A stretch of 64,000 nt of DNA from Squalus acanthias (lineage: Eukaryota), in NCBI GenBank assembly GCA_030390025.1, contig JASTWF010000337.1, forward strand, positions 62,001-126,000, in the 5' to 3' direction. The notes below the pieces were generated by a model that had not been told where the DNA came from, made no database searches, and saw only the letters and a list, made by a program, of their open reading frames with translations. The translations under genes were made by a program, and so were the position numbers. Below, piece after piece: positions 1,960-30,421 of the stretch. The stretch's first letter is position 1; every line of letters begins with the position of its first letter.

Positions 1960-1998
1960 CTAAGCGAATCTGTCAAAGATTAGTGCATCCCTTGCATC
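1960..1998 (-). pseudogene. Displaced C-terminus of the Harbinger transposase
   Basis: Reads DARDALIFDRFA*. Removing 1999-10722 and one CATC copy joins it in frame to ...[10 protein letters not shown] from 10723-10752. Confidence 0.85.
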
Positions 1999-3382
1999 TG
2001 TAAGGGGTTACGGTTCAGGGTGCTTGTGCGAGGTTAGGCCTTCTTGCTTGCTCTGGTCTCCAGCCAGCCTTGTTGCAATAAGCACCTGTGAGTGGTTCGA
2101 CCCACTCGCCCTTACGGTTCTAACACTGGACTTAGGTGCGAGAGCAGTAATGCATTGAAAACTCAAATAGACCCGGTTGAATAGTACGAAATGGAAATCT
2201 TTATTGCATAACGTCCAAAATCATGAAGTACATGTCATAGGCACAAATTAATGACAGTACAAGTATACATACATTCATAAAACTTGGTCTAGGGTAATGA
2301 GGATCGCACGGCACATTGTAAAAAGGGGAACACATTATATTTATCCTTAATAAAACCACCCTCCCCTATTAATACCTACACTAATCTAGATTTGTAAGAT
2401 CGAGGAAACATGCTCACCACTCGTGATACTTCGGAGAATTTTTAAACGAGGCACTCGGCTTGTTTCGCTGCAACACCTGACTGTCACGTGTTGGAAGGGG
2501 TCTCTGTACCCCACTTGTTTATTTTCGCTGCTCCGGCAAGCAGGCTGGGCTCCCCGTTGTCATGAAGAACTCGACAGTGCTCGGACACGGTTGTAGAAGT
2601 CCAGAGAGACAATCAAAAGCTCACCAGTCAAGCAAGTCCATGAAGCGGCAAGCGAATAAGAGTTCAGCAGTCATCAGCCAGATAAGAGACATAAGCAAGA
2701 GTTCAGCCCGAGTCAAGATTCGAATCAAGAGAATAAGCCTTTGATGAACATTTGTTCACTATAGTTATAGTGCTGTGTTCCCTTATCTCCCGCTCAAATC
2801 TTGATGTTTATCCTTTGTGTAATACTGGTGCACAAAACTCCCAGCATGGGGCGATTCTTTCCTTTAATGGGTTTCGGTAGCACCTTAAACTGGCCAACTA
2901 CCCGTTAATGCTTTCCCCATTGTCGAACCGGCTAGGAGTCTCCCTGACTGGTTTTGGGGCCTTCTCGAATACTGACTTAATCACCCGTGAATGGCTCTCT
3001 CATTGTAGAGCCGTGGGGGTAGTTGTGGATTGATGTATCTGGATGGGCCTTCGATTGCCCAGTACAATGGTCCTTACTTGTGCATGGAAAACGATTCCAG
3101 CACTTATCTCTTGCTATTGTGTCGAATGCAGACAGGTTGCATCCTGTCTTTATCAGTGTTTGCTGCGTATTAGCCAATCTTTACTGAAATGTTTATTCGA
3201 ACGCCATTTTGTCTGCCCACTGAAATTCTGGAAGCTTCTGCCACGAGGTGCGGTGGCCATTTTACAGGCTTCTTGTGTCCGTTTTTTGAACCTGACAGCA
3301 TTTTGCTGAAATAAAGCTGTTTTACGAAACTGTATGTCTCTTTCTCATTATTTTGAAATCGCGATAATTTGCGAATTCTACA
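1999..3382 (-). repeat. 3' LTR (1384 bp)
   Basis: Direct repeat of 9339-10722 with about 12 substitutions by eye and no indels. AATAAA on the minus strand at 2200-2205. Confidence 0.95.
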
Positions 3383-3394
3383 GTCCCTCCTGTT
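3383..3394 (-). promoter_or_regulatory. Polypurine tract of LTR element 2
   Basis: Minus-strand AACAGGAGGGAC immediately precedes the TGTAGAA start of the 3' LTR. Confidence 0.65.
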
Positions 3395-3831
3395 GATGCG
3401 AATAACTCCGCTTATCGTATCAATTAAAAATGGTGGTGAGCAACATTATCTCGATTCTCCATATCCAAATACTCCCTTGACTTAAAACTATCTAGGGTCT
3501 CCGTGTCGTCCTTATTTCCCAGGGAAAAATTCCATTTTTATAAAACCATAGGCAGTATTTGCCTTTAACTTACACCGCGTGTATGTCCTCCAGGTGTAAC
3601 AGGCCGATGCCTCTTGCACCACCTGTATAAGCATGATTTTTATTATTCAAGGAAAAGAAAAACAAAACAATCAAACAACCATAATTCAACAACACAAGAT
3701 TAAAAATAATCAAAACAACTCTTAAACATACAGAGTTCCAAACTTAGTTACAGGTTCTAAGAAAAATAACAATCAATTAAACAATTTCGAGACACACATG
3801 GAAAAAACTGGAGTGGCGCCACTCTGGCCGT

Positions 3832-6151
3832 TTACGCGGCGCCTTCTTCGTGCATGCGCACGTAACGCTCTCGCCACTCTCCTGTGTTTTCCTGCTTGGT
3901 GAGGCGCTTGCCCCTCCTGCAATGTACGACCAATAGGTACACTACAATTATGACCTGGCATACAACTAAAATGTGGGAGGCTATTCTAATCCAGGAGGGC
4001 ACTTCAATGTTGGTGAACAGATCCCACCACGGTGGGATTACTATGTCTAGGATCTCTGACCCTATCTCGACGGTCTTTTGCTCAAGGGTATAAAAATGTT
4101 TTTGCGATACCGCGACGGCTTTCAAAAGCTTGGTGAGGTGTTCAGGGAGAGGGGGAATGAGGTATCCGAAATGCGCGACGAATCGCTGCAAGTCGGTGAA
4201 ATTCTCTTTTACTGTTAGATGAACAGTGGATGGTTCAGGGATCGGGACAATTCGCTGCTGTGCCACTTGAACTTCAGCCCTGGGTTTAAAACAGAAACTG
4301 CTGTCACTCACCGGACACCGGCTGCGGTTTCCATGCTGGTAGTGTTGCGCTGCAGTGGTAATGCAATACGTTCCACCCCCTATGTATGCCACCTGCGGAG
4401 GCACATGATCTTGTGCCATTGCCTCCATGGTGCAATTCATGGGCTTGGCGCCAGCCGTTCTGAACCCACACTGTGGTGATAAAAAGGTATTCAAGTGCTG
4501 GGGACACAGGATTATGTGTGCTCCCCTGCCACGACAACCAGAGAGATCTGTACCTGTCATCGTTTGCTCCCAGCGGATGACGTAAGGTGGGACCGCTGCG
4601 TAGCGAATGTGGGCTCCCCCCTGAATGACACCAATGTTCTCTACCCGATACACCGGGGCGGGCTTTGCTGTGTCGCCCAAAACCGACATACGTAAAACTA
4701 TACCCATAATGGTATGGTTTGATCGTCCGCAGTCCACGGGGACTGGGTATGCTTCTGAGGCTAGCCTGAGCTGGCACGGGCTTAATGCGTTCTGAAAAGG
4801 GTGGAGTGCCTGCAGGTGTTTGTTACTTATCCAGGACGGGACCAAACCTTGTTTTAAATCCTCCAAATTACTGCGGCCCTCGCCCAGTAACCACGCCCCG
4901 TATAGGACGCATTCCGATCTTCCCTGATCAGGGCATTTACCGTACGCTCGTGTTTCTCCAGCTCTGCTATAATTTCCTTTAAGTGTAGCGTCATGGCCTG
5001 GTCTTCATGTAACCCCGACCCAACCACCTTATTTTCGTCTGTAAGAATATTTTTTAATTGTGTTTTTAAACCATTAATCTGGGTCTGCAACTCCACGTTG
5101 TCTGGAGCATTGACCACAGATGTTCCTGTATTAAAAGCGGTGAACATATCGTTCACAATACCCCTTCTTTGTCTCCCCACCTGGCCCAAAACTTCGTGTG
5201 GTGTGGCGTACAAGCTTGTCTTGTCAATCTCTGCAAAATCAAACTCGTAGAATTGTCTAAACATATTGGTCAACAGGACTTGATATAACTGTTCCGTCTC
5301 TTTGGGGCACCACTTTGGCAACCGCACCTCGGTGAGGTTTAAAATCACCGAGGCCACCGCGTAATGTACCCCCTGAAATAGTATCTGGTCTGTTGGGACC
5401 AGTACCAAACCATTCCCGGGCCCCTTAGTGGTTTTAGGGCACCCTTCCTCCTGAGCCAAAACCACCGGAATCGTGGGCGGGGCCTTGCGTGGGCGCGTGA
5501 TGAGTTCAGTGGCATTTACCGGGATCGGAGAGTATGGGGCTCCGCACCCCCTGGTGCTGACATCCCACCTCATCCCTTTCCCGTTGTCCTGCCACTGGTT
5601 TACGAAAAATATGGAGATGCCTTTGGGGCAAACGTGCTTTGACCCCCACATACATACATAAATTCCCTCATCGGTTCCCACCATTTGTCCCAACAGACTT
5701 TCAATTGTCCGTTAGTCCCCGTAATTGTCCGATGGGTATTATTACCCAAGCGCTCCCACTCAACCGAGGAATTTCTCATATTCTTGTTCAATTTCCGTAG
5801 CCACCACCATCGGCTCAATGGGACATTCCCTTTACAAGTCAAACAAATCCTTTTGCCGACGGTGACTCTGATCCTGGGTGCAATGATCCTCACTTTGGGG
5901 CACATCAAAGAAGTCTCTTTGTAGGCAAATCCCGATGTACTGGAGTATTCAGTTGAATTCGTTCCCAGCCATCCTGGCCACCTTCCCTTGTGGAAATAAG
6001 TGGCGGTCTCCTCAGCCTCTCGCCTCCCGGTCCCATCCGTCGCGATGGGGGCCGTGTCCCCGGAGCAACCAAATACCACGACATCCTTGGTGCGGCCTCG
6101 ATAGGCCAATCCACATCCAAATGCCGCGAGCACTACCAGAATCCGTTCCAT
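3832..6151 (-). pseudogene. env: Env: class I (F-like) fusion glycoprotein with signal peptide and putative Ig-like domain; two frameshifts
   Basis: Signal peptide MERILVVLAAFGCGLA (ATG at 6151); furin site RQRR (5174-5163) followed by GIVNDMFTAFNTGTSV and a heptad region; Cys-rich region; TM at about 3920-3990; short tail. Split over track ORFs 5600-6268, 4854-5693 and 3832-4866, with frameshifts near 5677 and 4905. Confidence 0.85.
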
Positions 6152-6460
6152 CCTTCCTTGGTTCCTGTGATCAGATAACATGAGGTAGCCAGCCTCCCAA
6201 GAGTCTCTGGCTTTTGTGAAGGGTGAGCGGGTCCCCTGACCTCGCCTCACGTAAGAAGACATGTGCACTGGATAGATCTTTTAACTAAACCTAATCTAAA
6301 CTCACTCCCGTCATTTATCTTTTACTTATCAAAATTAAACTATAAGACTTAACCTGATTAAAACTGTAAACTTAGACTTATAAACTTACAAACTTTAACT
6401 TAAACTTCTAACTTATCCTTAACTTATAAACTGTACAGCGCCGCCCGTTCCCAGGGCGGC

Positions 6461-7543
6461 CTAGCTAAATTCTTCGAAGGCTGCCACGAGCTTTTCCCAG
6501 TGGTGGGAGGGCACTGACCCCTTCCTTTGATCTGCCGCAGCCTGTCGCTGCTGCGCTGGGACTGGGATCTCCCTGGGCTGCCTTGACCTTGAACTTACGC
6601 CTGGGGGCGTACGGGGACTTGACCACGCCTTCCTGGGCTGGGGTGTCCGACCTGATCTACGGAGGGCTACATTGGACAAGGTTTCCAGGGCCGACGGACC
6701 GGGTACCGAGACTTCCACCGTCGCGGCCTGTGGTCCCACCACAGCCGCTGGCTCCGTCTCCCCTGGCTCCGCCTCCCTGAACTCGGGATTTGCAGTTTCT
6801 GGTACCACCCTACTTGGCCCAGTATGTGGTCCTCCACTCACAATCCCTACCTCCCCCAAGGGCAAGACTTCCAAGGCTGACGGACCGGGTTCCGAGACTT
6901 CCACTGTCACGACCTGTGGTCCTACCACAGCCGCTGGCTCCGTCTCCCCTAGCTCCGCCCCCCTGGGCTCAGGACCTGCAGTTTCTGATTCCACCCTGTG
7001 TGGATCTCCACTAGCAATCCCTATCTCCCCTAAGCTTGAGTCAAGGACGAACCTTTCGTCCTCCGATCTCAGCACCTCTCCGATCGGGTCACTATCTTGT
7101 TCGAGCTCCTCGAGCTCTCCCTCATCGGAATCCCGACACCAAGAAAAGATCCTACACTTTTCTAGAATGTCCTCTCCCCTCAAGCAGGCTGCTTTACCGG
7201 TCTGTGTGCCCTGCTGTCCTGCTTGGGGCTGAGAGTCCCCACTCGCAGGTCTGGCCCCTCCCCTAAGACAGGCCACCGCCCCTGCTTGTGCATTCGGTGA
7301 AATCTCACCTGCTGGAGGCTGCAGATTTCTATTCTGTTTTAAATCCTCATACTCCCTGCTCCTGGCTACCCTATAGGCTGCTTTTATGTCTCTAAGCTGC
7401 CCTTCTAGCCCATCTATTTTCCCCATTAAGCGGGCGTTCTCCTCCCGCAAGGCCTGCTCTTTTAACCTGGCCTCCTTACAGGAGACCCCCTCCTGTGCGC
7501 GTCTTTCAAGGGGACACAGGTAGGCAGGCTGCACCGGTTCCAG
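6461..7543 (-). CDS. Unknown ORF3 in the pol position: coiled coil, acidic Pro/Glu-rich tandem repeat, basic tail
   Basis: Open frame of about 360 codons starting directly after TGA at 7546-7544, with no ATG until the M of RLMGK at about codon 40. Contains two copies of an ~60-aa repeat (...GETEPAAVVGPQ..TVEVS.PGPSALE). Confidence 0.65.
   Translation of the reverse strand: MEPVQPAYLCPLERRAQEGVSCKEARLKEQALREENARLMGKIDGLEGQLRDIKAAYRVARSREYEDLKQNRNLQPPAGEISPNAQAGAVACLRGGARPASGDSQPQAGQQGTQTGKAACLRGEDILEKCRIFSWCRDSDEGELEELEQDSDPIGEVLRSEDERFVLDSSLGEIGIASGDPHRVESETAGPEPRGAELGETEPAAVVGPQVVTVEVSEPGPSALEVLPLGEVGIVSGGPHTGPSRVVPETANPEFREAEPGETEPAAVVGPQAATVEVSVPGPSALETLSNVALRRSGRTPQPRKAWSSPRTPPGVSSRSRQPREIPVPAQQRQAAADQRKGSVPSHHWEKLVAAFEEFS
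6675..7035 (-). repeat. Two-copy imperfect ~180-bp tandem repeat inside ORF3
   Basis: The block GACGGACCGGGT.CCGAGACTTCCAC...CAGCCGCTGGCTCCGTCTCCCCT occurs at 6693 and 6879 (offset 186) with the frame preserved. Confidence 0.85.
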
Positions 7544-9334
7544 TCAGAAGTCCGGGTTGCATGGGGCCGTTGCTACCTTCCCGTGTGAAATCATAAGGCT
7601 CCCAACATTGATTCTATCGCATCGGGATGGATAGGCACACCAGCTCCTCTCTCAGAGACAGGCGCTTGGGTTCGGGCTGCGGGATTTTTATCCCTGGGGT
7701 CCTTCCAGGGGTTCCTACAGTTCTTACGCCAGTGACCTGTCTTCCCGCACCCGTAACAAGCACCACTGGCTTGTGGGGCGCGGTTTCCCTCCTGATGCCA
7801 CTCTTTTTTGGGCCGGGGCCGCGGGCCGTGCCTCATGCACCTTTCCCTTAAGGGGACGCGCTCCCGTGCTCCTAGTGTTCCGATATCCTGTCGTGAGTCG
7901 ATTTAGGACCGACTCCTCTGTTGTGGCGGGGTTAGTGGGATCAAACCACGCTTTGGCCTGCTCCCTGACGGCTGGCAAACTGTTGGCTACTAAACACCTG
8001 AGCCAATGAGTTAAACCGACACCATCCAGATCGTCGCGCGCTGGCGCACCTGGGCAGCTATGCTGGTATACTGGCCACAGCCTGTCGGCGAAAACCTTCG
8101 GGGGTTCTCCCTCCATCTCAACTGTCTGACCCAATCTAACGAACGGACCTTCGTCGTCCGCCCCCAACACTTCTAGGACCTCGTCCCTTAACTTCTCATA
8201 GGTATTATTTCCCCTCTTGCTCTCGTCTGAGAGACACTGAAGGATCGAGCTGTCTAATGAGAACAACAGCATTTTGGTCTTTTCCGCATCGTCGCAGCCA
8301 TTAATTGCTGCGGTCTGTTCTACCTCCCTGAAGTGTACGGAAGGGTCGTCTGACTCAGACAGCTTCCGTACATGACTAATCATTGCTCTCAGCTGGTGTG
8401 AGCTGTGAGGCAACACAAGCTGGTTCAGGACATCCCCGTTCTCCCCATTGGCTCCGTTCGGGCCCCTCTTGTGACCTGTAAGTGGACACAACGGTCCCGG
8501 CTTCGACACTACCTCTGGGGATTGTTCTACCTCGGGGACCTCCTCTTCTATTTCCACCACTTCCTTCCTTACCCAGGTTGCCGAATAGCTGGGTGGCGTG
8601 GAGGGTGCAGTGGCAAATACCTCCTCTGCTTTGTCTGGTAGGGATTTTGGGAATTCCCTACCCACCTGTGGCTGGTGTGCTGATGGGCTGATGAGGCACA
8701 CCATGCCGTTTGCCTTATTCAGGGCCTCTCTTAGGTTCCCTATCTCCTTCTGGCAAACACTGTGGTCGGCTCCCTCAAGCCTATCCTCGAGGGCCATCTT
8801 ATATGCCGCCATAACTCCCAGCAAGCTTTCTTCTTGGGCTTTTATCTAGTTAGCTAGGCGGACACACCGTTCTCTAATCCTACCCTCGTTTAACTTTGAT
8901 TCCGTGACCTGACACTCTAGGTAATCAATTTTAGCCTCATGGTGGTTGGCTACTATCTGGCGTTCCTGATGTAACGCATTCAAGGATGCAATGAGTTTTT
9001 GTCCTCCCGTGACCTTTTCCTCCATCTCAACCTCCAATTCCCTGATCTGAGCTGCCTGTGCCACAATGACCTGGTCCGAAAGTTGGACTTGCTTCTTGTA
9101 GCACATCAGCCAGACCACTTTCTCTACCGACTTCTTATGCTCTTTACTGTCTGTCCATTTGATGGCTGCGTCTAGCGGACGCTTATCCATCAGCAGGTCA
9201 CTTATCCACCTTTTGGTTAAGTTAACCTTCCCAAACACATAGTCGGCTACCCTCTCATCCATCACATTTCGCCTATTCACACCAGGGTCTAAAACATTAC
9301 TCTCTCGCTGCCAGCCTCGTGCCGCGGTCGCCAT
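7544..9334 (-). pseudogene. gag: Gag (coiled-coil N-terminus, capsid-like middle, CCHC zinc knuckle); one in-frame stop and frameshifts
   Basis: ORFs 8846-9334 and 7724-8824 are in the same frame, separated by a single TAG. The knuckle CYGCGKTGHWRKNC lies in the +1 frame after an A6 run at 7804-7809. The 3' end at TGA 7544 is inferred and needs one more 1-nt correction near 7598. Confidence 0.8.
9320..9333 (-). promoter_or_regulatory. Primer-binding site, tRNA-Arg(UCG)-like
   Basis: TGGCGACCGCGGCA starts 5 nt after the 5' LTR and is complementary to the 3' end ...UGCCGCGGUCGCCA of a vertebrate tRNA-Arg(UCG), recalled from memory and not searched. Confidence 0.75.
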
Positions 9335-9338
9335 TTTC

Positions 9339-10722
9339 TGTAAGGGGTTACGGTTCAGGGTGCTTGTGCGAGGTTAGGCCTTCTTGCTTGCTCTGGTCTC
9401 CAGCCAGCCTTGTTGCAATAAGCACCTGTGAGTGGTTCGACCCACTCGCCCTTACGGTTCTAACACTAGACTTAGGTGCGAGAGCAGTAATGCAGAGAAA
9501 ACTCAAATAGACCCGGTTGAATAGTACGAAATGGAAATCTTTATTGCATAACGTCCAAAATCATGAAGTACATGTCATAGGCACAAATTAATGACAGTAC
9601 AAGTATACATACATTCATAAAACTTGGTCTAGGGTAATGAGGATCGCACGGCACATTGTAAAAAGGGGAACACATTATATTTATCCTTAATAAAACCACC
9701 CTCCCCTATTAATACCTACACTAATCTAGATTTGTAGGATCGAGGAAACATGCTCACCACTCGTGATACTTCGGAGAATTTTTAAACGAGGCACTCGGCT
9801 TGTTTCGCTGCAACACCTGACTGTCACGTGTTGGAAGGGGTCTCTGTACCCCACTTGTTTATTTTCGCTGCTCCGGCAAGCAGGCTGGGCTCCCCGTTGT
9901 CATGAAGAACTCGACAGTGCTCGGACACGGTTGTAGAAGTCCAGAGAGACAATCAAAAGCTCACCAGTCAAGCGAGTCCATGAAGCGGCAAGCGAATAAG
10001 AGAACAGCAGTAATCAGCCAGATAAGAGACATAAGCAAGAGTTCAGCCCGAGTCAAGATTCGAATCAAGAGAATAAGCCTTTGATGAACATTTGTTCACT
10101 ATAGTTATAGTGCTGTGTTCCCTTATCTCCCGCTCAAATCTTGATGTTTGTCCTTTGTGTAATACTGGTGCACAAAACTCCCAGCATGGGGCGATTCTTT
10201 CCTTTAATGGGTTTCGGTAGCACCTTAAACTGGCCAACTACCCGTTAATGCTTTCCCCATTGTCGAACCGGCTAGGAGTCTCCCTGACTGGTTTTGGGGC
10301 CTTCTCGAATACTGACTTAATCACCCGTGAATGGCTCTCTCATTGTAGAGCCGTGGGGGTAGTTGTGGATTGATGTATCTGGATGGGCCTTCGATTGCCC
10401 AGTACAATGGTCCTTACTTGTGCATGGAAAACGATTCCAGCACTTATCTCTTGCTATTGTGTCGAATGCAGACAGGTTGCATCCTGTCTTTATCAGTGTT
10501 TGCTGCGTATTAGCCAATCTTTACTGAAATGTTTATTCGAATGCCATTTTGTCTGCCCACTGAAATTCTGGAAGCTTCTGCCACGAGGTGCGGCGGCCAT
10601 TTTACAGGCTTCTTGTGTCCGTTTTCTGAACCTGACAGCATTTTGCTGAAATAAAGCTGTTTTACGAAACTGTATGTCTCTTTCTCATTATTTTGAAATC
10701 GCGATAATTTGCGAATTCTACA
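9339..10722 (-). repeat. 5' LTR (1384 bp)
   Basis: Direct repeat of 1999-3382; minus strand reads TGTAGAATTC...CCCCTTACA and is followed by the PBS. Confidence 0.95.
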
Positions 10723-11905
10723 CATCCCGGGCAGCAATGTGCTCCCATGCTGCTGACCCATCCGCCTCCACAAGGTCTTCCTCCTCCTCCTCTTCCTCTT
10801 CCTCTTCCTCCTCATCTGAGGATGCTGTGCGCTGAGCCACTTGTTCCTCAGGCAGCTGCAAGCCACGATGTTGTGAAGTGCACAGCAGACCACGACGATT
10901 CTGGAGACCCTGGCTGCTGAGTACTGTAGGGCTCCACCTGATCTGTCAAGGCATCTGAATTGCATTTTGAGCAAGCCGATGGTTTGCTCGATGATGGCTC
11001 TGGTGGAAATGTGGCTCACATTGTAGCGGTCCTCAGCTTCGTTTGATGGCCTCCTCAACGACGTCATTAACCATGTCTTCAGGGCATAGCCCTTGTCTCC
11101 AAGTAGCCATCCGGAAAGTTGTGTTGGCGGATTGAAGAGCTGAGGCACAGTAGACTGCCGCAGGATGAACGAGTCATGGCAACTGCCAGGGAACTTGGCG
11201 CAAACATGCATAATGTCCTTCCTGTGGTTACACACCAGCTGGACGTTAAGGGAGTGGAAGCTCTTGCGGTTGACAAATACAGCTGGGTTGTGATGGGGTT
11301 CCCTAATGGCCACATGTGTGTGGTCTACGACGCCCTGCACACTTGGCAAACCTGCCAGCTTTGCAAAGCCAACCGCACGCGTGGTTACACTTGCTTCATC
11401 CATGGAGAGGTGGATGTAATTGTGCGCCTTTGCAAAGATGGCATCGGTAACCTGCGTGATGCAGGTGTGTGTGGCTGACTGGGAGATGCCGCTGATGTTT
11501 GCTGATGATTCCTGGAAGGACCCTGAAGCAAAACATTTGAGCGCGGTGGTGACTTTGACAGCCACTGGTAAGGAGTGTCCACCCGCTCCTCTAGGCTCCA
11601 GGTGCAGCAGTGCGCAGATGTCAGCGACTACCTCTCGCGAAAGTCTCAACGTGCTTTGGCACTGCTGCTCTGTTGGCAATGTTGAGGAAGCTCATCCTCA
11701 TCCTGTAAACCCTGTGTTGGGGGTATCTCCTGCGGCGTGGAGCAGCCCTGCGCTGACGCCCTCTGCCCTGTGCAGCATCAGGTGGGTGAGGAGGAGGTTG
11801 GCGCTCCTGTTGTTGCTGCTGCTGTTGTGCCTGGTTCTGCTGCTGCCGTGGCTGCTCTTCCTCCGAATCTGAGGACCAGGATGAGAGGATATAAATGGTT
11901 CTCAT
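10723..11905 (-). pseudogene. Harbinger/PIF DDE transposase (HARBI1-like), frameshifted and interrupted
   Basis: Motifs [55 protein letters not shown] and CCALHN. Frameshifts near 11680 and 10860; the C-terminus is at 1960-1998. Confidence 0.9.
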
Positions 11906-12310: not shown

Positions 12311-13022
12311 TTCTTTTTCAATTTGTTTATGAGATGTGGACATCGCTGGCAAGGCCAGCATTTATTGCCCATCCCTAATTGCCCTTGAGAAGGTGGTGGT
12401 GAGCCGCCTTCTTGAACCGCTGCAGTCCGTGTGGTGAAGGTGCTCCCACAGTGCTGTTAGGGAGGGAGTTCCAGGATTTTGACCCAGCGACGATGAAGGA
12501 TCGGCGATATCCTTCTCAGTCAGGGTGGTGTGTGACTTGGAGGGGAACTTGGAGGTGATGGTGTTCCCATGCGCCTGCTGCCCTTGTCCTTCTAGGTGGA
12601 AGAGGTCGCGGGTTTGGGAGGTGCTGCTGAAGAAGCCTTGGCGAGTTGCTGCAGTGCATCTTGTAGATGGTACACACTGCAGCCACGGTACGCCGGTGGT
12701 GGAGGGAGTGAATGTTTAAGTTGGTAGATGGGGTGCCAATCAAGTAGGCTGCTTTGTCCTGGATGATGTCGAGCTTCTTGAGTGTTGTTGGAGCTTCACT
12801 CATCCAGGCAAGTGGAGAATGTTCCATCACACTCTTTACTTGTGCTTTGTAGATGGTAGAAAGGCTTTGGTGAGTCAGGAGGTGAGACATTAGCCACAGA
12901 ATACCCAGCCTCTGACCTGCTCTTGTTGCCACAGTATTTATGTGGCTGGTCCAGTTAAGTTTCTGGTCAATGGTGACCCCCAGGATGTTGATGGTGGGGG
13001 ATTCGACGATGGTAATGCCATT
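12311..13022 (-). mobile_element. 5'-truncated non-LTR retrotransposon 3' end (CR1/L2 group, distinct from the CR1s downstream)
   Basis: ORF 12516-12932 (IYKAQVKSVMEHSPLAW...KKLDIIQDKA...SLHHRR) resembles a LINE ORF2 C-terminus and is followed by a 3' UTR with an A-rich end. Satellite flanks both sides. Confidence 0.75.
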
Positions 13023-16000
13023 GTGAGTGTGTGAGAGAATGTCAGTGTGTGTGAGAGACTGAGTGTGTGAGAGACTGTGAGTGTGAGATAGACTATGAGT
13101 GTGTGAGAGACTGTGAGTATGTGAGAGACTGTGATTGTGCGAGGGACTGTGATTGTGCGAGGGACTGTGAGTGTGAGAGAGACTGTAAGTGTGGGAGAGG
13201 CTGTGAGTGTGTGAGAGACTGTGAGTGTGTGAGAGAGACTGTGAGTGTGAGAGAGACTGTGAGTGTGTGAGAGACTGTGAGTGTGTGAGAGACTGTGAGT
13301 GTGTGAGAGACTGTGAGTGTGAGAGTCTGTGAGTGTGTGAGAGACTGTGAGTGTGAGAGACTGAGTGTGTGAGAGACTGAGTGTGTATGAGAGACTGTGA
13401 GTGTGAGAGAGACTGAGTGTGAGAGAGACTGTGAGTGTGTGAGAGATTGTGAGTGAGCGAGAGAGACTGTGAGTGTATGAAAGACTGAGTGTGTGAGAGA
13501 GACTGTGAGTGCGTGAGAGAGACTGTGAGTGTGAGAGACTGTGAGTGTGTGAGAGAGACTGAGTGTGTGAGAGAGACTGTGAGTGTGTGAGAGACTGTGA
13601 GTGTCTGAGAGAGACTGTGAGTGTGTGAGAGACTGTGACTGTGTGAGAGAGACTGTGAGTGTGTGAGAGACTGAGTGTGTGAGAGAGACTGTGAGTGTGT
13701 GAGAGACTGTGAGTGTGTGAGAGACTGTGTGTGAGAGAGACTGTGAGTGTGAGAGAGACTGTGAGTGTGACAGAGACTGTGAGTGAGAGAGAGACTGAGC
13801 GTGTGAGAGAGACTGTGAGTGTGTGAGAGAGACTGAGTGAGTTTGAGAGACTGTGAGTGTGAGAGACTGTGCGTGTGTGAGACTGTGAGTGTGTGAGAGA
13901 CTGAGTGTGTGAGAGACTGTGCGTGTGTGAGACTGTGAGTGTGTGAGAGACTGAGTGTGTGTGTGAGTGTGTGTGAGAGGCTGAGTGTGTGTGTGAGTGT
14001 GCGTGAGAGATTGAATGTGTGAGAGACTGAGTGTGTGTGTGAGTGTGTGTGAGAGACTGAATGTGTGAGAGACTGAGTGTGTGTGTGAGTGTGTGTGAGA
14101 GACTGAGTGTGTGTGTGAGTGTGTGTGAGAGACTGAATGTGTGAGAGACTGAGTGTGTGTGTGAGTGTATGAGAGAGACTGAGTGTGTGTGAGAGTGTGT
14201 GAGAGAGACTGAGTGTGTGTGTGAGTGTGTGAGAGAGACTGAGTGTGTGAGAGACTGTGCGTGTGTGAGACTGTGAGTGTGTGAGAGACTGAGTGTGTGT
14301 GAGTGTGTGAGAGAGACTGAATGTGTGAGAGACTGAGTGTGTGTGTGAGTGTGTGTGAGAGGCTGAGTGTGTGAGAGAGACTGTGAGTGTGTGAGAGACT
14401 GAGTGTGTGAGAGAAATTGTGAGTGTGTGAGAGACTGTGAGTGTGTGAGTGAGTCTGCGAGTGTGTGTGAGAGACTGTGAGTGTGTGAGAGGGACTGTGA
14501 GTGTGTGAGAGGAAATGTGAGTGTGTGAGAGGGACTGTGAGTGTGTGAGAATGACTGAGTGTGTGAGAGAGACTGAATGTGTGAGAGGCTGTGAGTGTGT
14601 GAATGACTGAGTGTGTCAGAGAGTCTGTGAGTGTGTGTGAGACTGAGTGTGTCAGAGAGATTGTGAGTGTGTGTGAGAGACTGTGAGTTTGTGTGAGAGA
14701 CTGAGTGTGACAGAGACTGAGTGTGACAGAGACTGAGTGTGTGAGAGACTGAGTGTGTGAGATACTGTGAGTGTGTGAGAGAGGATGCGAGTGTGTGAGA
14801 GACTGAATGGGTGAGAGGCTGTGAGTGTGTGAATGACTGAGTGTGTCAGATAAACTGTGAGTGTGTGTGAGACTGAGTGTGTGAGAGACTGAGTGTGTGA
14901 GAGAGATTGTGAGTGTGTGTGAGAGACTGTGAGTTTGTGTGAGAGACTGAGTGTGACAGAGAATGAGTGTGACAGAGACTGAGTGTGTGAGAGACTGTGA
15001 GTGTGTGAGAGAGACCAGTAGTATTTGTGAGAGACTGTGAGTGTGTGTGAGAGTCTGTGAGTGTGTGTGAGAGACTGTGAGTGTGTGAGGGAGACTGTGA
15101 GTGTATGATAGACTGAGTGTGTGAGAGACTATGAGTGTGTATGAGAGACTGTGAGTGTGTGAGAGAGATTGTGAGTGTGTATGAGAGACTGTGAGTGTGT
15201 GAGAGAGATTGTGAGTGCGTATGAGAGACTGAGTGTGTGAGAGACTATGAGTGTGTGAGAGACTGAGTGTGTGAGAGACTATGAGTGTGTGAGAGACTGA
15301 GTGTGTGAGAGAGATTGTGAGTGTGTGTGAGAGACTGTGTGTGTGAGAGACTATGAGCATGTGAGAGACTATGAGTGTGTGAGAGACTGAGTGTGTGAGA
15401 GACTGTGAGTATGTGAGAGACTGTGAGTGTAAGAGACTGTGAGCGTGTGAGAGACTGTGAGTGTGTGAGAGACTGTGAGTGTGTGAGGGAGATTGTGAGT
15501 GTGTGAGACTGAGTGTGTGTGAGACTGTGAGTGTGTGAGAGACTATGAGCGTGTGAGAGACTGAGTGTGTGAGAGACTGTGAGTATGTGAGAGACTGTGA
15601 GTGTGAGAGACTGTGAGCGTGTGAGAGACTGTGAGTGTGTGAGGGAGATTGTGAGTGTGTGAGACTGAGTGTGTGTGAGACTGTGAGTGTGTGAGAGAGA
15701 CTGTGATTGTGTGAGAGACTGAGCGTGTGAGAGACTGAGCGTGTGAGAGACTGAGTGTGTGAGAGAAACTGTGAGTGTGTATGAGAGATTGTGAGTGTGT
15801 GATACTGAGTGTGTGAGAGACTGAGTGTGTGAGAGAGACTGTGAGTGTGTATGAAAGATTGTGAGTGTGTGAGACTGAGTGTGTGAGAGACTGTAAGTGT
15901 TTGCGAGACTGAGTGTGTGAGAGACTGAGTGTGAGAGAGAGTGTGAGTGTGACAGAGACTGTGAGTGAGAGAGAGACTGAGCGTGTGGGAGAGACTGTGA

Positions 16001-16707
16001 GTGTGAGAGACTGTGAGTGTGAGAGACTGAGTGTGTGAGAGAGATTGTGAGTGTGTGTGAGAGACTGTGAGTTTGTGTGAGAGACTGAGTGTGACAGAGA
16101 ATGAGTGTGACAGAGACTGAGTGTGTGAGAGACTGTGAGTGTGTGAGAGAGACCAGTAGTATTTGTGAGAGACTGTGAGTGTGTGTGAGAGACTGTGAGT
16201 GTGTGAGGGAGACTGTGAGTGTATGATAGACAGAGTGTGTGAGAGACTATGAGTGTGTATGAGAGACTGTGAGTGTGAGAGAGAGATTGTGAGTGTGTAT
16301 GAGAGACTGAGTGTGTGAGAGACTATGAGTGTGTGAGAGACTGAGTGTGTGAGAGACTGTGAGTATGTGAGAGAGATTGTGAGTGTATATGAGAGACTGA
16401 GTGTGTGAGAGACTATGAGTGTGTGAGAGACTGAGTGTGTGAGAGACTGTGAGTATGTGGGAGATTGTGAGTGTGTGAGATTGAGTGTGTGAGAGACTGT
16501 GAGTGAGAGAGACTGTGAGTGTGTGAGAGAGACTGTGAGTGTGTGAGAGACTGAGCGTGTGAGAGACTGAGTGTGTGAGAGAGACTGTGAGTGTGTATGA
16601 GAGATTGTGAGTGTGTGAGACTGAGTGTGTGAGAGACTGAGTGTGTGAGAGAGACTGTGAGTGTGTATGAAAGATTGTGAGTGTGTGAGACTGAGTGTGT
16701 GAGAGAC
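13023..16707. repeat. Satellite, ~16-22-bp monomer GACT(GT)GAGTGTGT(GA)n
   Basis: Continuous tandem variants of GAGAGACTGTGAGTGTGT; a short patch of the same repeat also lies at 12257-12310. Confidence 0.95.
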
Positions 16708-17017
16708 TGTGGGAGAATCTAGAACTAGGGGTCACTATTTAAAAATAAGAGGTCGCCCATTTAAGACAGAGATGAGGAGAAATTTTTTCTCACAGAGGGT
16801 CATGAGACTTTGGAACTCTCTTCCTCAGAGGGCGGTGGAAGCAGAGTCTTTGAATATTTTTAAGGCAGAGGTAGACAGATTCTTGGTAAGCAAGAGGATG
16901 AAAAGTTATCGGGGGTAGGTGGGAATGTGGAGTAATCGAAACAGCCATGATCTTATTGAATGGCGGAGCAGGCTCGAAGGGCCGAGTGGCCGACTCCTGC
17001 TCCTAATTCATATGTTC
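16708..17017 (+). mobile_element. CR1 LINE 3' fragment
   Basis: GESRTRGH.LK...EMRRNFFSQRV..LWNSLP ORF2 tail, 3' stem-loop GGAGCAGG...CCTGCTCC and a TATGTT end. Very similar to 32047-32355. Confidence 0.9.
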
Positions 17018-18226
17018 GAGAGACTGTGAGTGTGTGAGAGAGACTGTGAGTGTGTGAGAGAGACTGTGAGTGTGTGAGAGAGACTGTGAGTGTGTGTGAG
17101 AGACTGTGAGTGTGTGAGAGAGACTGTGAGTGTGTGAGAGAGACTGTGAGTGTGTGAGAGAGACTGTGAGTGTGTGTGAGAGACTGTGAGTGTGTGTGAG
17201 AGACTGAGTGTGTGAGAGAGACTGTGAGTGTGTGAGAGAGACTGTGAGTGTGAGAGAGAGACTGTGAGTGTGTGAGAGAGACTGTGAGTGTGTGAGAGAG
17301 ACTGTGAGTGTGTGAGAGAGACTGAGTGTGTGAGAGAGAAAGTGAGTGTGTGTGAGAGACTGTGAGTGTGTGAGAGAGACTGTGAGTGTGTGAGAGAGAC
17401 TGTGAGTGTGTGAGAGAGACTGTGAGTGTGTGAGAGAGACTGAGTGTGAGAGAGAGACTGTGAGTGTGTGAGAGAGACTGTGAGTGTGTGAGAGAGACTG
17501 TGAGTGTGAGAGAGAGACTGTGAGTGTGTGAGAGAGACTGTGAGTGTGTGAGAGACTGAGTGTGTGAGAGACTGAGTGTGTGAGAGACTGTGAGCGTGTG
17601 CGGGAGCCTGTGAGTGTGTGAGAGAGACTGTGAGTGTGAGACTGAGTGTGTGAGAGAGACTGTGAGTGTGTGAGAGAGACTGTGAGTGTGTGAGAGACTG
17701 TGAGTGTGTGAGACAGACTGAGTGTGTGAGAGAGACTGTGAGTGTGTGAGAGAGACTGTGAGTGTGTGAGAGACTGAGTGTGTGAGAGAGATTGTGTGTG
17801 TGTGTGAGAGACTGTGACTCTGTGAGAGAGTCTGTGAGTGTGAGAGATACTGTGAGTGTGTGTGAGAGACTGAGTGTGTGAGAGACTGAGTGTGTGAGAG
17901 GCTGTGAGTGTGTGAGAGAGTCTGTGATTGTTTGAGTGACTGTGAGTGTGAGAGAGAGACTGTGAGTGTGTGAGAGAGACTGTGAGTGTGTGAGAGAGAC
18001 TGTGAGTGTGTGAGAGAGACTGTGAGTGTGTGTGAGAGACAGTGAGTGTGTGTGAGAGACTGTGAGTGTGTGAGAGAGACTGCGAGTGTGTGTGAGAGAC
18101 TGTGAGTGTGTGAGAGAGACTGTGAGTGTTTGAGAGAGACTGTGAGTGTGTGAGAGAGACTGTGAGTGTGTGTGAGAGACTGTGAGTGTGTGAGAGAGAC
18201 TGTGAGTGTGTGAGAGAGACTGTGAG
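17018..18226. repeat. Satellite, mostly regular 20-bp monomer GAGAGAGACTGTGAGTGTGT
   Basis: Tandem array seen directly. Confidence 0.95.
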
Positions 18227-21200
18227 TGTCGTAAGAATGAGCCTTACGCGTGGTGAACTTAAAGTAAGCTTTAATCAACTAAAAAAGGTGCTACATACAA
18301 AAGAGGTCTTACTCTATGCCTCTCCAGGATCCAACTGATCAGTCCAGTATTTATCCTGGACTAATCACAGGAAGTGATGCAATAAAGTTCGAGTCACAGG
18401 AAGCTGTATTGTGTTACCACATTCTCCCCCCACAAAAGATTAGGAGGCCGGGATGAAGTTCGAGTCACAGGAAGCTGTATTGTGTTACCACATTCTCCCT
18501 CCATTTCGTAGCCGCTGGACGAGGGAGAGCCGCACCCGTTTGGGTTCTCGTAGCGGTAGAGGGCCCCTAGCCCGTTTACCCGCCGCAGGCCGTGGACCAG
18601 AGTCCGAGTGATCCAGCCCGCTCTGTGAGGGGTCAGGACGATCCTGACTGTGTACTGGTGCCCGAACGGGTGTCGGGCAGGGCTGTGGCAGATCCGTTTC
18701 TGAGCGTACGGTACAGGGTGGAACGTGGCTGCGCGTGCGAGCCCCGACGGGCTCATAGTCAGTCTGCCCCAGGTCGGCACGCTGGAGTGAGGTACCAGCC
18801 GGCGTTAGATCCAGATCGTGATGAGAGGCACCTGGCGAGCCCAGAGATGTGCCTGGTACAATATCATCCCCTGGTGTCCCTCTATGTTTCGGCGGGCAGG
18901 GAGCCAGATCCCGCAATGACACGGTAGATTCCCGACCGTCAGGATACCGAATATAGGCGTAGGTAGGGTTGACATCAGTGAGCTCAACCTCATCTACCAG
19001 GGGGTCATTCTTAGACGCCCGGACATATCTTCGGAGTAGCACTGGTCCCGGTGCAGTCAGCCACGACGGGAGAGATATCCCATAGGATGAGCGACGCTGA
19101 AATCGGAAGAACCGTTCATGAGGCGTCGTATTTGTGGCGGTCGAAAGGAGGGACCGTGTGGAGTGTAATGCGTCTGGAAGTACTGCTTCCCATTGCTGGT
19201 TGGGTAGGCCCCGAGATCTCAAAGCCAGACGTACCGCATTCCAGATGATAGCGTTAAAACGCTCGACTTGCCCATTCCCGACCGGATGATAAGGCGTCGT
19301 TTTGCTGGCAGCAATACCCCGTTCCGAGAGATAGGCCTTGAGTTCTCCTGACATAAAAGAAGGGCCCCGATCCGAATGAACATAGGATGCCATGCCACAG
19401 AAAGCAAATACCTGCTCAAGGCAGCTGATAACCGTGGACGTCAGCATATTGGGGCAGGGAAAGGCAAACGGAAAACGGGAATACTCATCGACCATGGTCA
19501 ATAGATGAGTGTTGCGAGTTGAAGAGGGCAATGGCCCCTTAAAATCGATGCTAAGCCATTGCATTGGCTGGGTCGCATGTATGAGTATACCACCCGAGGG
19601 GCGGAAAAACCGAGGTTTCAATTCCGCACAGACTCTGCAGTCCGAGCACATCTTCTTTACATCCCCGGTAGAGAATGGGAGATTTCGGGACCGCACGAAG
19701 TGTAGCATGCGAGTAACGCCCGGATGACACAACCCATCATGGATGTCTACGAGCGTAGAGGGTGCCATGGCGGAGCAGAATGCTCGTGTGAGGGTATCTG
19801 GAGCCACATTCTCCTTGCCAGGTCGATAGTGGATGGTGTAACCAAAAGAGGCCAATTCCAGCCGCCAAAGCTGGATTTTATTATTTTTAATTTTGGTCCG
19901 TTTTCGATTATCGAGCATGAAGGCGACCGATCGCTGGTCCGTGATAAAGGTAAAGTGCTGGCGAGCTAGGAGGTGACTCCACTTCCGTACTGCCTCTATG
20001 ATGGCTGTAGCTTCTTTCTCGACTGGAGGATAATGTAGCTCAGTCCCTTGAAAAGTCCTGGACAAAAATGCCACCGGACGACCTTCCTGATTCAGAGTGG
20101 CCGAGATCGCCACCTCCGAGGCATCACACTCAACGACAAAAGGAAGACTCTCATCGATGGAGTGAAGAGTCGCTTTCTGCAACTGTTTTTTCAGGAGGTT
20201 AAAGGCTGCAACAGCCGCTGTGTCTAGTGGGAATGTGCTGGCCTTCAGTAGAGGTTGGATTCGGTCCGAGAAGTTAGGAATCCATTTAGCATAGTATGCA
20301 AACAGGCCGAGGGCCCGGCGCAAGGAGGCCGGATTCTTAGGTGGCGGGAGTTCTTGGAGTGGGCGAAGCCTTTCAGGGTCAGGTTTAATGATGCCATTGC
20401 CCACACAATAGCCAAGGATGTTGATGGTTGGTTGTGACTCAATGGATTTAGCCGCATTTAATGTCAAATTACGGTGCTGGAGTGCATCCCAAAATCGCTG
20501 GAGATTGGCGTCATGTTCCCGCTGATTGCGACCTGTGACAGTAATATTGTCCAGATAAGGAAACGTATCCTTCAAGTCTTCCTGTTTGACCAGGTCATCC
20601 ATTGCTCGCTGGAAGACAGCCACTCCATTAGTGACCCCAAAGGGGAGGCGACGAAATTGATACAGCCGTCCATTGGCTTCAAAGGCCGTATACTGCTTGT
20701 CTGAGACCTTCAAGGGTACCTGATGATAGGCACTTTTTAGATCATATGTTGAGAACACCGTGTACTCAGCCAATTTATTAACCATATCATCGATGCGCGG
20801 CAATGGGTATGCGTCCAAGTCCGTATATTGATTGATGGTCTGTGAATAGTCAATGCACAGCCGTTTCTTGTGAGGTTGTAGAGGGTTCTTAACAATAACG
20901 ACCTGGGCGCGCCATGGCGACGAACAAGGCTCGATGATATCCTCTGCTAAAAGCCGAGAAATCTCAGCCGCAATAAAAGACTGGTCTTCCTGACTGAAAC
21001 GTCGTGACTTTGTTATAATTGGTTTGCATCGAGGAGGGATACTGGAAAACAGTGAGGGTTCATCCAGTGAAGCTGCTGACAATGCACAGAATGGTAATCG
21101 AGGTAGTATATTAGAAATAGGGAGTTCAGGTTTAGATCCGCCGAACTCAATGGTGAGCTTCTTATGCTGCTTTTGAAAATCCAGCCCTAAGATAAGATCA

Positions 21201-22417
21201 CTACATAAGTCCTTGAGCACCAAAAGCCGGGTGGAGGGATACCTGTGACCATTAAGTATTATTTCAACCCTACAAAAGCCAGAAATTCTGGTATTAAGTG
21301 ATGACTGAGCCATCGCAACTGCCTGGTCCGATGGGAAAACATGTAGCTTTAACTCTGCAACAATCTGTTCCCTAATGAAACTATCAGTGCTACCTGAGTC
21401 AATTAAGGCATCTAAAGTATGTCCATTAATTGATGCTTTTGTAGCTGCATGGAATAGGTTCTGAGGACAAGCAGCTGTAATTGGTGTCGTTGCACAAAGA
21501 GTGGCTGAAACTCTAGGTGTGTTTCTTCGAGAGGAAGCACGATAGATTTTAGCCGAAACATCTTGATAGGCCCTTACCGGGGCAGTTCGGTAGGACTTAG
21601 CTTGATAAGCCCTCGTAGAGGCTCTTGATAGGCAAACCTTTGCAAAATGACCCTTTTTGTTGCAATGACTGCAAAACGCATTGCGAGCAGGGCAGAATTT
21701 CCGAGGGTGGAACTCATCACCACAAAAGAAGCATTTCTTAGATTGCCAAGAGGCTGCCACAGTGGGGTCATCATCCTCTTCATCAGTGAAGTCATCAGAT
21801 TGATCGTCAGGGATAAAGACCTCCCTAATAGAGTTCACCTGTGGCCTCTTAAATTGCCTGACTGTAGTTAAGGCAGTAGACCGAGGTCTGGGCACTGTAT
21901 AAAGGTCTGCATTTCTTTTTGCCAGATCTAGAGAGCAAGCCATGTCATAAGCTCTCTGAAGCTCAAGTGTCTTACTTTCCAGTAGACGCTGGCGTATAAA
22001 TGGGGAGGCAAGCCCGCAGATGAAAGCATCACGGATCATTTCTTCATGGTACAGCTCAGCTGAGGCCGCCTGAAAGTTACAGTCCATACTAAGTCTGCGA
22101 AGCTCTTGGAGGAATTTATCAATGGATTCCTCCGGCCCTTGTTGGGCTGCAGCAAGTAGATGTCTGGCATAGACCTAATTCGGTGTCTTAGTATATAGTC
22201 TCTTAAGCTTCCGAATTGCCTCCTCGTAACTGTCCCATTCCTCCACATACTGAAATACATTTGGGGTGACACAGTTGATGAGTATCCGCAACTTTGAGTC
22301 ATCATCAGCCTTACAATATTCCAGAAAATTGTCAAACGTGCAGTATTTATCCTGGACTAATCACAGGAAGTGATGCAATAAAGTTCGAGTCACAGGAAGC
22401 TGTATTGTGTTACCACA
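18227..22417 (-). mobile_element. Ty3/Gypsy LTR retrotransposon (probably Mag-like) with a partly deleted 5' LTR
   Basis: 195-bp 3' LTR at 18227-18421 (TGTGG...CGACA on minus); 77-bp 5' LTR remnant at 22341-22417; GTGAG on both flanks (18222-18226, 22418-22422); gag-PR-RT-RH-IN order. Confidence 0.92.
18485..22087 (-). CDS. Gag-Pol polyprotein (1200 aa open; upstream gag part 22088-22340 is frameshifted)
   Basis: Two zinc knuckles (CFFCGDEFH....C and CSHCNKKGHFAKVC), protease LIDSGS, RT (DLKSAYHQ, LPFG, YLDN), RNase H (CDAS, EKEA, TDQ), integrase HHCC and DDE core (SIDFKGP, SDRG, GQVER). Confidence 0.93.
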   Translation of the reverse strand: MDCNFQAASAELYHEEMIRDAFICGLASPFIRQRLLESKTLELQRAYDMACSLDLAKRNADLYTVPRPRSTALTTVRQFKRPQVNSIREVFIPDDQSDDFTDEEDDDPTVAASWQSKKCFFCGDEFHPRKFCPARNAFCSHCNKKGHFAKVCLSRASTRAYQAKSYRTAPVRAYQDVSAKIYRASSRRNTPRVSATLCATTPITAACPQNLFHAATKASINGHTLDALIDSGSTDSFIREQIVAELKLHVFPSDQAVAMAQSSLNTRISGFCRVEIILNGHRYPSTRLLVLKDLCSDLILGLDFQKQHKKLTIEFGGSKPELPISNILPRLPFCALSAASLDEPSLFSSIPPRCKPIITKSRRFSQEDQSFIAAEISRLLAEDIIEPCSSPWRAQVVIVKNPLQPHKKRLCIDYSQTINQYTDLDAYPLPRIDDMVNKLAEYTVFSTYDLKSAYHQVPLKVSDKQYTAFEANGRLYQFRRLPFGVTNGVAVFQRAMDDLVKQEDLKDTFPYLDNITVTGRNQREHDANLQRFWDALQHRNLTLNAAKSIESQPTINILGYCVGNGIIKPDPERLRPLQELPPPKNPASLRRALGLFAYYAKWIPNFSDRIQPLLKASTFPLDTAAVAAFNLLKKQLQKATLHSIDESLPFVVECDASEVAISATLNQEGRPVAFLSRTFQGTELHYPPVEKEATAIIEAVRKWSHLLARQHFTFITDQRSVAFMLDNRKRTKIKNNKIQLWRLELASFGYTIHYRPGKENVAPDTLTRAFCSAMAPSTLVDIHDGLCHPGVTRMLHFVRSRNLPFSTGDVKKMCSDCRVCAELKPRFFRPSGGILIHATQPMQWLSIDFKGPLPSSTRNTHLLTMVDEYSRFPFAFPCPNMLTSTVISCLEQVFAFCGMASYVHSDRGPSFMSGELKAYLSERGIAASKTTPYHPVGNGQVERFNAIIWNAVRLALRSRGLPNQQWEAVLPDALHSTRSLLSTATNTTPHERFFRFQRRSSYGISLPSWLTAPGPVLLRRYVRASKNDPLVDEVELTDVNPTYAYIRYPDGRESTVSLRDLAPCPPKHRGTPGDDIVPGTSLGSPGASHHDLDLTPAGTSLQRADLGQTDYEPVGARTRSHVPPCTVRSETDLPQPCPTPVRAPVHSQDRPDPSQSGLDHSDSGPRPAAGKRARGPLPLREPKRVRLSLVQRLRNGGRMW

Positions 22418-23718: not shown

Positions 23719-24413
23719 GTGAGAGACTGTGAGTGTATGAGAGAGACTGTGAGTGTGTGAGAGACTGAGTGCGTGAGAGACTGAGTGTGTGAGAGACTGT
23801 GAGTGTGTGCGGGAGACTGTGAGTGTGTGAGAGAGACTGTGAGTGTGTGAGAGAGACAGTGAGTGTGTGTGAGAGACTGTGAGTGTGTGAGAGACTGAGT
23901 GCGTGAGAGACTGAGTGTGTGAGAGACTGTGAGTGTGTGCGGGAGACTGTGAGTGTGTGAGAGAGACTGTGAGTGTGTGTGAGAGACTGTGAGTGTGTGA
24001 GAGAGATTGTGAGTGTGTGTGAGAGACTGAGTGTGTGAGAGACTGAGTGTGTGAGAGACTGTGAGTATGTGAGAGAGATTGTGAGTGTGTATGAGAGACT
24101 GTGAGTGTGTGAGGGAGATTGTGAGTGTGTGAGACTGAGTGTGTGAGAGACTGTGAGTGTGTGAGAGAGACTGTGAGTGTGTGAGAGACTGAGCGTGTGA
24201 GAGACTGAGTGTGTGAGAGAGACTGTGAGTGTGTATGAGAGATTGTGAGTGTGTGAGACTGAGTGTGTGAGAGACTGAGTGTGTGAGAGAGACTGTGAGT
24301 GTGTATGAAAGATTGTGAGTGTGTGAAACTGAGTGTGTGAGAGACTGTGAGTGTTTGCGAGACTGAGTGTGTGAGAGACTGAGAGTGTGAGAGAGACTGT
24401 GACTGTGTGTGAG
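23719..24413. repeat. Satellite
   Basis: Tandem array seen directly. Confidence 0.95.
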
Positions 24414-27165: not shown

Positions 27166-27193
27166 TATTAGCTTTCCTAATTACTTGCTGTAC
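27142..27193. repeat. Perfect 24-bp inverted repeat with 4-nt loop at the CR1/CR1 junction
   Basis: GTACAGCAAGTAATTAGGAAAGCT-TATT-AGCTTTCCTAATTACTTGCTGTAC. Confidence 0.95.
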
Positions 27194-27431
27194 ATAAGAA
27201 CATAAGAACATAAGAAATAGGAGCAGGAGTAGGCCAATCGGCCCATCGAGCCTGCTCCGCCATTCAATAAGATCATGGCTGATCTGATCCTAACCGCCAA
27301 TCTACTATCTATCACAGAAACATCTCCTGCATCTAACAGAATTGCACACACGAAATAGGAGCAGAATCAGGCTACACAGTCCCTGGGCCCGCTCCACTAC
27401 CCACAGGGCCATGACCGATCCGAACCTAGAC

Positions 27432-30383: not shown

Positions 30384-30421
30384 TTTTATTTTTTGCTCTC
30401 TTGAAACCTCCCCCCCACTAA

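Follow-up and report, generated by a model that had tools for sequence, protein, structure and literature searches.

Analysis of a 64,000-nucleotide window of the Squalus acanthias genome (contig JASTWF010000337.1, positions 62,001 to 126,000; coordinates below are those of this window) reveals, on the minus strand, a provirus which carries gag and env but no pol. Comparison with its relatives in the 3.7 Gb genome that was searched for copies makes it very probable that it represents a defective form of a pol-bearing endogenous retrovirus (ERV) family, which borrows its enzymes and whose deletion cassette persists through recombination with helpers and across families.

An earlier note on this DNA had described a complete pol-less element. 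Its boundaries are confirmed in our analysis: two 1384-nucleotide long terminal repeats (LTRs) with TG...CA ends are 99.1% identical (12 mismatches) and are enclosed by a CATC target-site duplication (TSD), a primer-binding site (PBS)-like TGGCGA motif is located 5 nucleotides inside of the 5′ LTR, and a polypurine tract (PPT) precedes the 3′ LTR. We take the PBS of the family to be of the tRNA-Arg type. The family contains two alternative PBS types, present in 38 and 10 of the 69 scored copies (besides variants), and both are presumably tRNA-Arg isoacceptors. The absence of protease (PR), reverse transcriptase (RT), RNase H (RH) and integrase (IN), also noted earlier, holds as well: YxDD, protease D[ST]G and HHCC motifs are missing from all six frames of the element interior, and a Pfam scan of 8 internal frames at the curated cut-off gives zf-CCHC as the sole domain. 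Completeness does not extend to the coding regions. Gag is broken by a premature stop near 8846 and frameshifts near 7810 and 7600, env by a frameshift near 5670 and a short deletion near 4910 (its furin-type RQRR lies at 5174 and its transmembrane segment near 3990), and the final ~50 codons of the middle open reading frame (ORF) are out of frame compared with sister copies. Because of these lesions, this copy is now dead. No ORF of at least 80 amino acids is present between env and the LTR in this copy.

The missing enzymes are found in other members of the family. Among 20 copies anchored on gag, 12 contain ~3.7 kb of pol exactly at the gap, seven contain none and one contains part of it. 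The helper pol continues in frame after the gag TGA and encodes protease, RT, tether, second RNase H, integrase and an acidic tail of ~280 residues, with both RT_RNaseH and RNase_H recognized by Pfam. Helper frames of ~1,500 codons are common (14 such loci were read), and helper and pol-less copies have the same PBS, PPT and LTR ends; the autonomous element sharing these features, for which the earlier note had proposed a search, thus exists in the same genome. As part of the overall explanation, these copies very likely belong to a large, recently active ERV family with gag, a pol reached by TGA readthrough and an env resembling paramyxovirus F. The partial copy, L050, has a distinct pol deletion which retains the protease and part of RT.

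The gap in the pol-less copies had been described as filled by an unrelated open ORF rather than a pol remnant, and this description has to be revised. The middle ORF opens directly after the gag stop, its codons 1–12 are the start of Pol, and its residues ~97–360 are the Pol C-terminal tail, with ~90% DNA identity to pol-bearing copies; ~84 codons are foreign to pol. As judged from these alignments, the middle ORF is a pol remnant plus a small foreign Gag-like piece, in frame behind the gag TGA. The insert is read as a piece of a related but different gag, since 108 amino acids of its longer form can be aligned to the Gag coiled coil at 31% identity (E 2e-14); its identity to the Gag of another family, here called family C, is 38–45%. 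A full-length donor Gag was not found among the longer proteins searched, which is weak evidence, and genome searches with the insert returned solely cassette-bearing frames among the best-scored matches.

Several observations support that the pol-less form replicates as such, dependent on a helper, and has reached about a thousand copies. The internal 5.9 kb has 14 other near-full-length, co-linear matches of 91–93% identity among the 34 listed (29 scored candidates). Exact 4-nucleotide TSDs flank 13 of the 18 clean-ended copies and 12 of them are distinct, which is what the earlier note had suggested looking for. Exact 23-nucleotide junction patterns occur at 1,310 pol-less versus 2,048 pol-bearing places (0 for reversed controls); these counts are minimum values, and duplicated haplotypes may contribute to them. 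LTR divergence is 0.6–2.9% (median 1.3, 18 copies) in stage A, to which the copy in the window belongs, and 0–0.7% (median 0.12, 12 copies) in the younger stage B, which is only 75–83% identical to stage A. Four of the 12 stage B pairs are identical, the young pol-less copies with identical LTRs bear their own TSDs, and in many of the young pol-less copies none of gag, middle ORF and env is interrupted. The part of the earlier claim concerning a non-autonomous, helper-dependent element replicating in this form is therefore upheld by the junction counts, the distinct TSDs and the identical young LTR pairs. Six pol-less copies form a head-to-tail array with ~6.4-kb spacing (G000:C3:64285928-64318250), and L028/L033 is a pol-less pair in tandem with one LTR in common.

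One 5′ junction and one foreign insert are common to all 40 copies picked by DNA pattern and to all 20 copies anchored on the insert; the family's pol is present in 0 of these 20, one of which has a nested, unrelated pol. This largely refutes the explanation that repeated independent deletions, or germline gene conversion after insertion, produced the pol-less copies. L050 does demonstrate another partial pol deletion and conversion can make mosaics, but the four young pol-less copies with identical LTRs and their own TSDs also speak against this explanation, which we regard as very improbable.

Sequence comparison suggests that the genes surrounding the deletion are those of the helper. In FastTree trees of gag (71 rows), env (66) and tail (67), built from recombining, hand-picked copies and omitting one tandem duplicate and rows without the segment, pol-less and pol-bearing copies interleave on one old-to-young ladder, with 14, 17 and 13 state changes, respectively. 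A single pol-less clade is rejected by the approximately unbiased (AU) test (p 1e-40 for gag and 9e-15 for env, 9+9 rows). All 150 matches of the youngest tail are identical, 97 of them in frames of at least 800 amino acids and 46 in frames of 345–440 amino acids. Between stages A and B, synonymous divergence (dS) falls from about 1.0 in gag to 0.4 in env, 0.3 in pol and 0.07 in the insert, and the cassette is 95% identical. Since the trees show gag, env and tail of the pol-less form scattered among those of helper copies, this form does not appear as an independent satellite lineage, and only the deletion cassette seems to be its own. Stages that are only 1–2% apart in LTR age have reached a dS near 1.0 in gag, a very fast turnover which suggests repeated reinfection rather than slow germline copying.

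The earlier note had favoured a true satellite, an independent gag and env lineage which supplies its own capsid and envelope and borrows Pol only. The many young pol-less copies in which gag, middle ORF and env are open are consistent with this, as are the retention of env and the ratios of nonsynonymous to synonymous divergence (dN/dS) of 0.15–0.25 in gag and 0.04–0.20 in env, which indicate purifying selection. However, at every stage the pol-less copies have the gag, env and tail of the helper, which can itself be the source of the open frames and of the constraint. Purifying selection cannot be credited to the pol-less form because both are helper genes, repeatedly swapped in. A distinct structural-gene lineage is rejected by the AU test on gag and env and by the identical tails, and gag and env of the copy in the window are broken. 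We consider a satellite of this kind unlikely.

Layers are visible at the 5′ junction, which on comparison of the copies are old crossovers. In stage A copies, including the one in the window, the last ~40 nucleotides of gag are foreign and match the gag end of family C, probably a trace of the host in which the cassette lived before; the crossover lies at the stop codon in one copy and ~20 nucleotides further in two. In stage B copies, a B gag end is joined to an older helper's pol start. Family C has a Gag 44–51% identical and an LTR that is not alignable, with the same PBS start and PPT. It carries the same cassette, 85–92% identical, although its Gag is ~46% identical; of 20 family C junctions read, 14 have the cassette and 6 the protease. 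In the pol-bearing ones (L147, L148, L150, L155, L157 and L158), the protease motif is reached after a shorter stretch than in the A/B helper. The simplest reading is that the cassette had one origin and then passed from C to A/B by template switching; alternatively, family C may be an older rung of the same ladder.

These data can be accommodated in the following scheme. One old recombination would have swapped PR-RT-RH-IN for a foreign gag piece, with the first codons of Pol and its acidic tail left in frame. Since the RNA retains LTRs, PBS and PPT, pol-bearing relatives would provide the enzymes by which it is packaged and copied. When helper and defective RNAs are co-packaged, template switching would replace all that surrounds the deletion with current helper sequence, and mosaics of helper sequence around the deletion are observed in the alignments. 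Because the surroundings keep being replaced in this way, the inherited pol-less unit would be the cassette of ~250–450 nucleotides alone, which may have arisen or lived earlier in family C and then crossed into A/B. The open readthrough frame would be kept as a Gag-fusion product, or readthrough itself, probably favours the RNA in cis.

The frame of the cassette is well kept. A tail anchor allowed 32 of the 40 junctions that had been selected solely by DNA pattern to be scored, and 31 of these are in frame, in nine length classes. In-frame non-homologous changes include a 46-codon loss, a 23-codon duplication, changes of +2 and −3 codons and a second 3′ junction, and five or six independent in-frame events would occur by chance about once in 250–700. 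The dN/dS comparison proposed in the earlier note gives a divided result, with gag and env constrained and insert and tail near 1. RNA folding is not beyond that of shuffled sequences (z −1.8 to −2.4 for the insert and about −1 for the readthrough stop). Because frames are kept while insert and tail show a dN/dS near 1, and because no remarkable RNA fold was detected, we infer that selection acts on an open readthrough frame, through RNA stability or a cis-acting Gag fusion, and not on residues. Nucleotide constraint as a cause of the low insert dS was considered and rejected, since this dS is within the range of pol windows.

It is also possible that the cassette is a neutral passenger, in which the shorter deletion replicates faster and the frame is kept by the mechanics of homologous template switching. 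The near equality of dN and dS in insert and tail and the lack of an unusual RNA fold at insert or stop are as this explanation would have it; in contrast, the non-homologous junction changes are all in frame, and what 1,310 copies and two families have in common is this one insert, not a set of newly made deletions. We regard the passenger as a serious possibility, though not the favoured one. More tentatively, and with some doubt, the cassette may be a selfish sub-genomic module which outlives helper genomes and recombines into new variants and another family. Its readthrough product (Gag, a second, foreign Gag coiled coil and the acidic Pol tail) would win packaging in cis or interfere with helper assembly, and the virus itself would be a still-enveloped, possibly circulating, non-Loki retrovirus with an F-type envelope.

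Several points weigh against the explanation preferred here, that of a recombining, helper-dependent cassette with a selected frame. Trans-mobilisation and readthrough are predicted from sequence, and germline gene conversion could also produce mosaics. Pol state on the gag tree clusters beyond shuffled labels (14 changes, 0 of 200 shuffles as low), while on env it does not (31 of 200 as low). Eight of the 40 junctions are not scorable, and frame keeping may partly come from homologous crossovers and codon-phased repeats, so that perhaps five or six independent events underlie the nine classes. Insert dN/dS is 0.2–1.2 on few changes and tail dN/dS is 0.6–1.1, with no protein-level constraint, and the low insert dS lies at the edge of the pol-window range, not outside. 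Family C was read at length in only 3 elements, 2 of which have no visible env in the stretch.

The F-like layout proposed for Env in the earlier note is borne out by the fold of a sister copy's Env. A model of its fusion part (34-row alignment, predicted local distance difference test score (pLDDT) 72.6) matches the F proteins of human parainfluenza virus 3 (E 3e-12) and respiratory syncytial virus (E 6e-11), and also foamy Env, which is likewise F-like. Env sequence searches of Pfam and PDB gave no match, and ESM Atlas gave leads under 0.9 only (F0, baculovirus F). A single-sequence AlphaFold model of Env (pLDDT 35) was unusable and was discarded. The Env model also matches Envs of walleye epidermal hyperplasia virus 1 (E 3e-9) and walleye dermal sarcoma virus (5e-6) in BFVD, and epsilonretrovirus Env may be F-type too. 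A weak Ig_3 match (E 0.3) is present in the N-terminal part of Env (window ~5450–6151; residues 98–173 of the L046 env).

The link to lokiretroviruses drawn in the earlier note fares less well. In favour of a lokiretrovirus newly found in this host group are the dual RNase H, the F-like Env, the nearest named Pol matches, which are annotated NYNRIN-like and were found with the RT-RH region, and a visible motif likeness to Loki Env in the part of the PMC7947760 supplement available. However, the helper RT motifs LPQG, PTV and QYVDD are, by eye comparison with the published alignment, those of the snakehead retrovirus (SnRV)/gamma/epsilon rows; the three Loki rows of the alignment in PMC7947760, as far as its accessible portion goes, have CPFG/TPFG, WP[MT] and [VI]YVDD, and lokiretrovirus identity was rejected on this ground. 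Dual RNase H is common to all retroviruses and so is not diagnostic of Loki, and neither is an F-like Env, because foamy Env is F-like too. In a quick RT tree of 27 rows, drawn without Loki or foamy, the family stands beside frog and coelacanth ERV proteins (support 98) with SnRV at an open fork of retroviral rows; a search of viral contigs with RT alone gave no match. Membership in the lokiretroviruses is thus quite improbable, and the family, judged by its motifs, works like an F-enveloped retrovirus which should not be filed among them. Troyka (PMC12440569, accessible text: 3-nucleotide TSD, CG ends) and errantiviruses (bioRxiv 2023.10.26.564294, likewise) were also rejected, by the TG..CA ends, 4-nucleotide TSD, dual RNase H and retroviral RT.

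The system counts with the trans-complemented defective ERVs intracisternal A particle (IAP) 1-delta-1, ETn/MusD, Bhikhari and CfERV-Fc1(a), which are compared here through the accessible portions of the papers cited. As in mouse IAP 1-delta-1, a very successful non-autonomous element with a common internal deletion and an in-frame gag-pol fusion ORF whose protein is reported to be cis-acting (PMC6466679), one common defect is present in many independent insertions and an autonomous partner has the same cis signals. The present form differs from IAP 1-delta-1 (PMC6466679) in the loss of all four enzymes, a full-length gag, the retention of env and the foreign gag piece that occupies the gap, and its cassette can be followed from one helper stage and family to another. 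ETn/MusD and CfERV-Fc1(a) are similar in their spread by helper proteins, defects common to insertions and co-packaging recombinants, but ETn has no coding capacity and CfERV-Fc1(a) shows mostly env loss and small pol lesions (PMC6466679, PMC6407205). Zebrafish Bhikhari Bik-1/Bik-2 is also pol-less and many-copy, with a coiled-coil Gag in a fish-type host, but it has Gag alone, without env, and is assigned to lokiretroviruses (bioRxiv 2024.03.25.586437). The lokiretroviruses of PMC7947760, whose survey found 0 of 6 cartilaginous-fish genomes positive, share the F-like Env and the dual RNase H of the helper, whereas the helper RT has canonical-retrovirus motifs. Non-autonomous grass pararetroviruses have helper and dependent forms homogenised by frequent recombination as well; there the common stretches are non-coding and regulatory, and here they are whole gag, env and LTRs around a fixed cassette (PMC5491270).

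SnRV was represented by sequence L143, so taken by its 10,688 nucleotides, as in PMC12193657. It resembles the present family in its in-frame gag-pol stop (TAG in SnRV, TGA here), PBS start TGGCGA, coiled-coil Gag with one CCHC and Pol (32% identical). It differs in that the Envs have no BLASTP similarity (best E 0.83) and no 3′ accessory ORF of at least 80 amino acids is present here.

These copies would provide a dated fossil series of a defective-interfering-like retroviral genome, in which ~4 of 10 copies with an intact junction motif are pol-less. The series spans a helper lineage whose gag changed by ~1 synonymous substitution per site while LTR pairs diverged by 0–3%. What persists would be the cassette, not the genome, and it would have crossed between families with 46% identical Gag. 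In this family, too, a retrovirus of canonical type has an Env like paramyxovirus F, and the idea given in the available text of PMC9040795, that such an Env marks lokiretroviruses, is weakened by it. Neither this family nor a helper-hopping pol-deletion cassette is described in the literature searched, which lay outside subscription papers and Repbase/Dfam; new here are the persistence of a single cassette, its layered crossovers, its occurrence in two divergent helper families and the kept frame.

Table 1. Features of the pol-less provirus and its insertion site in the window.
Feature	Position	Strand	Basis or remark
Target-site duplication CATC, left	1995..1998	none	sequence
3′ LTR, 1384 nt	1999..3382	minus	12 mismatches with the other LTR
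Polypurine tract	3383..3393	minus	identical tract in pol-less and pol-bearing copies
env, F-like class I fusogen, in three pieces here	3832..6151	minus	fold of sister copy's open frame resembles paramyxo/pneumovirus F
AT-rich non-coding spacer 5′ of env	6152..6460	minus	sequence
Pol C-terminal acidic/Pro-rich tail with internal ~180-nt duplication	6461..7255	minus	comparison with pol-bearing copies
84-codon insert in place of PR-RT-RH-IN	7256..7507	minus	resembles end of other family's Gag coiled coil
pol codons 1–12	7508..7543	minus	alignment to pol-bearing copies
gag TGA stop, in frame with downstream ORF	7544..7546	minus	context TGA-CTG; helper TGA-CTA
~40-nt gag end, family C type, unlike own helper	7547..7586	minus	sequence match
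gag (N-terminal coiled coil, capsid, one CCHC knuckle at 7758)	7547..9334	minus	ORFs and Pfam zf-CCHC
Primer-binding site, starts TGGCGA, overlaps first gag ATG	9316..9333	minus	sequence
5′ LTR, 1384 nt	9339..10722	minus	sequence
Target-site duplication CATC, right	10723..10726	none	sequence
Harbinger-type transposase frame	10723..11691	minus	Pfam DDE_Tnp_4, E 3e-35

The spacer upstream of env probably holds the env splice acceptor; no env splice joint was found in contigs of the 4 sequencing runs covering the gag-insert junction. The stage B junction is present in 20 sequencing runs with four organism labels, none of them recorded as RNA.

The provirus interrupts the Harbinger transposase frame (10723–11691 and just left of 1998) in its 3′ end, near the transposase C-terminus. 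Half of the window (~13000–18000 and ~32000–64000) consists of degenerate GA/GT-rich tandem arrays, which are very long and strongly GC-skewed. An open frame of 1229 codons on the minus strand (~18490–22174) resembles what we take to be a Gypsy-type gag-pol, and two inverted pieces of a CR1-like long interspersed element (LINE), 77–85% complementary, lie at ~24400–30740.

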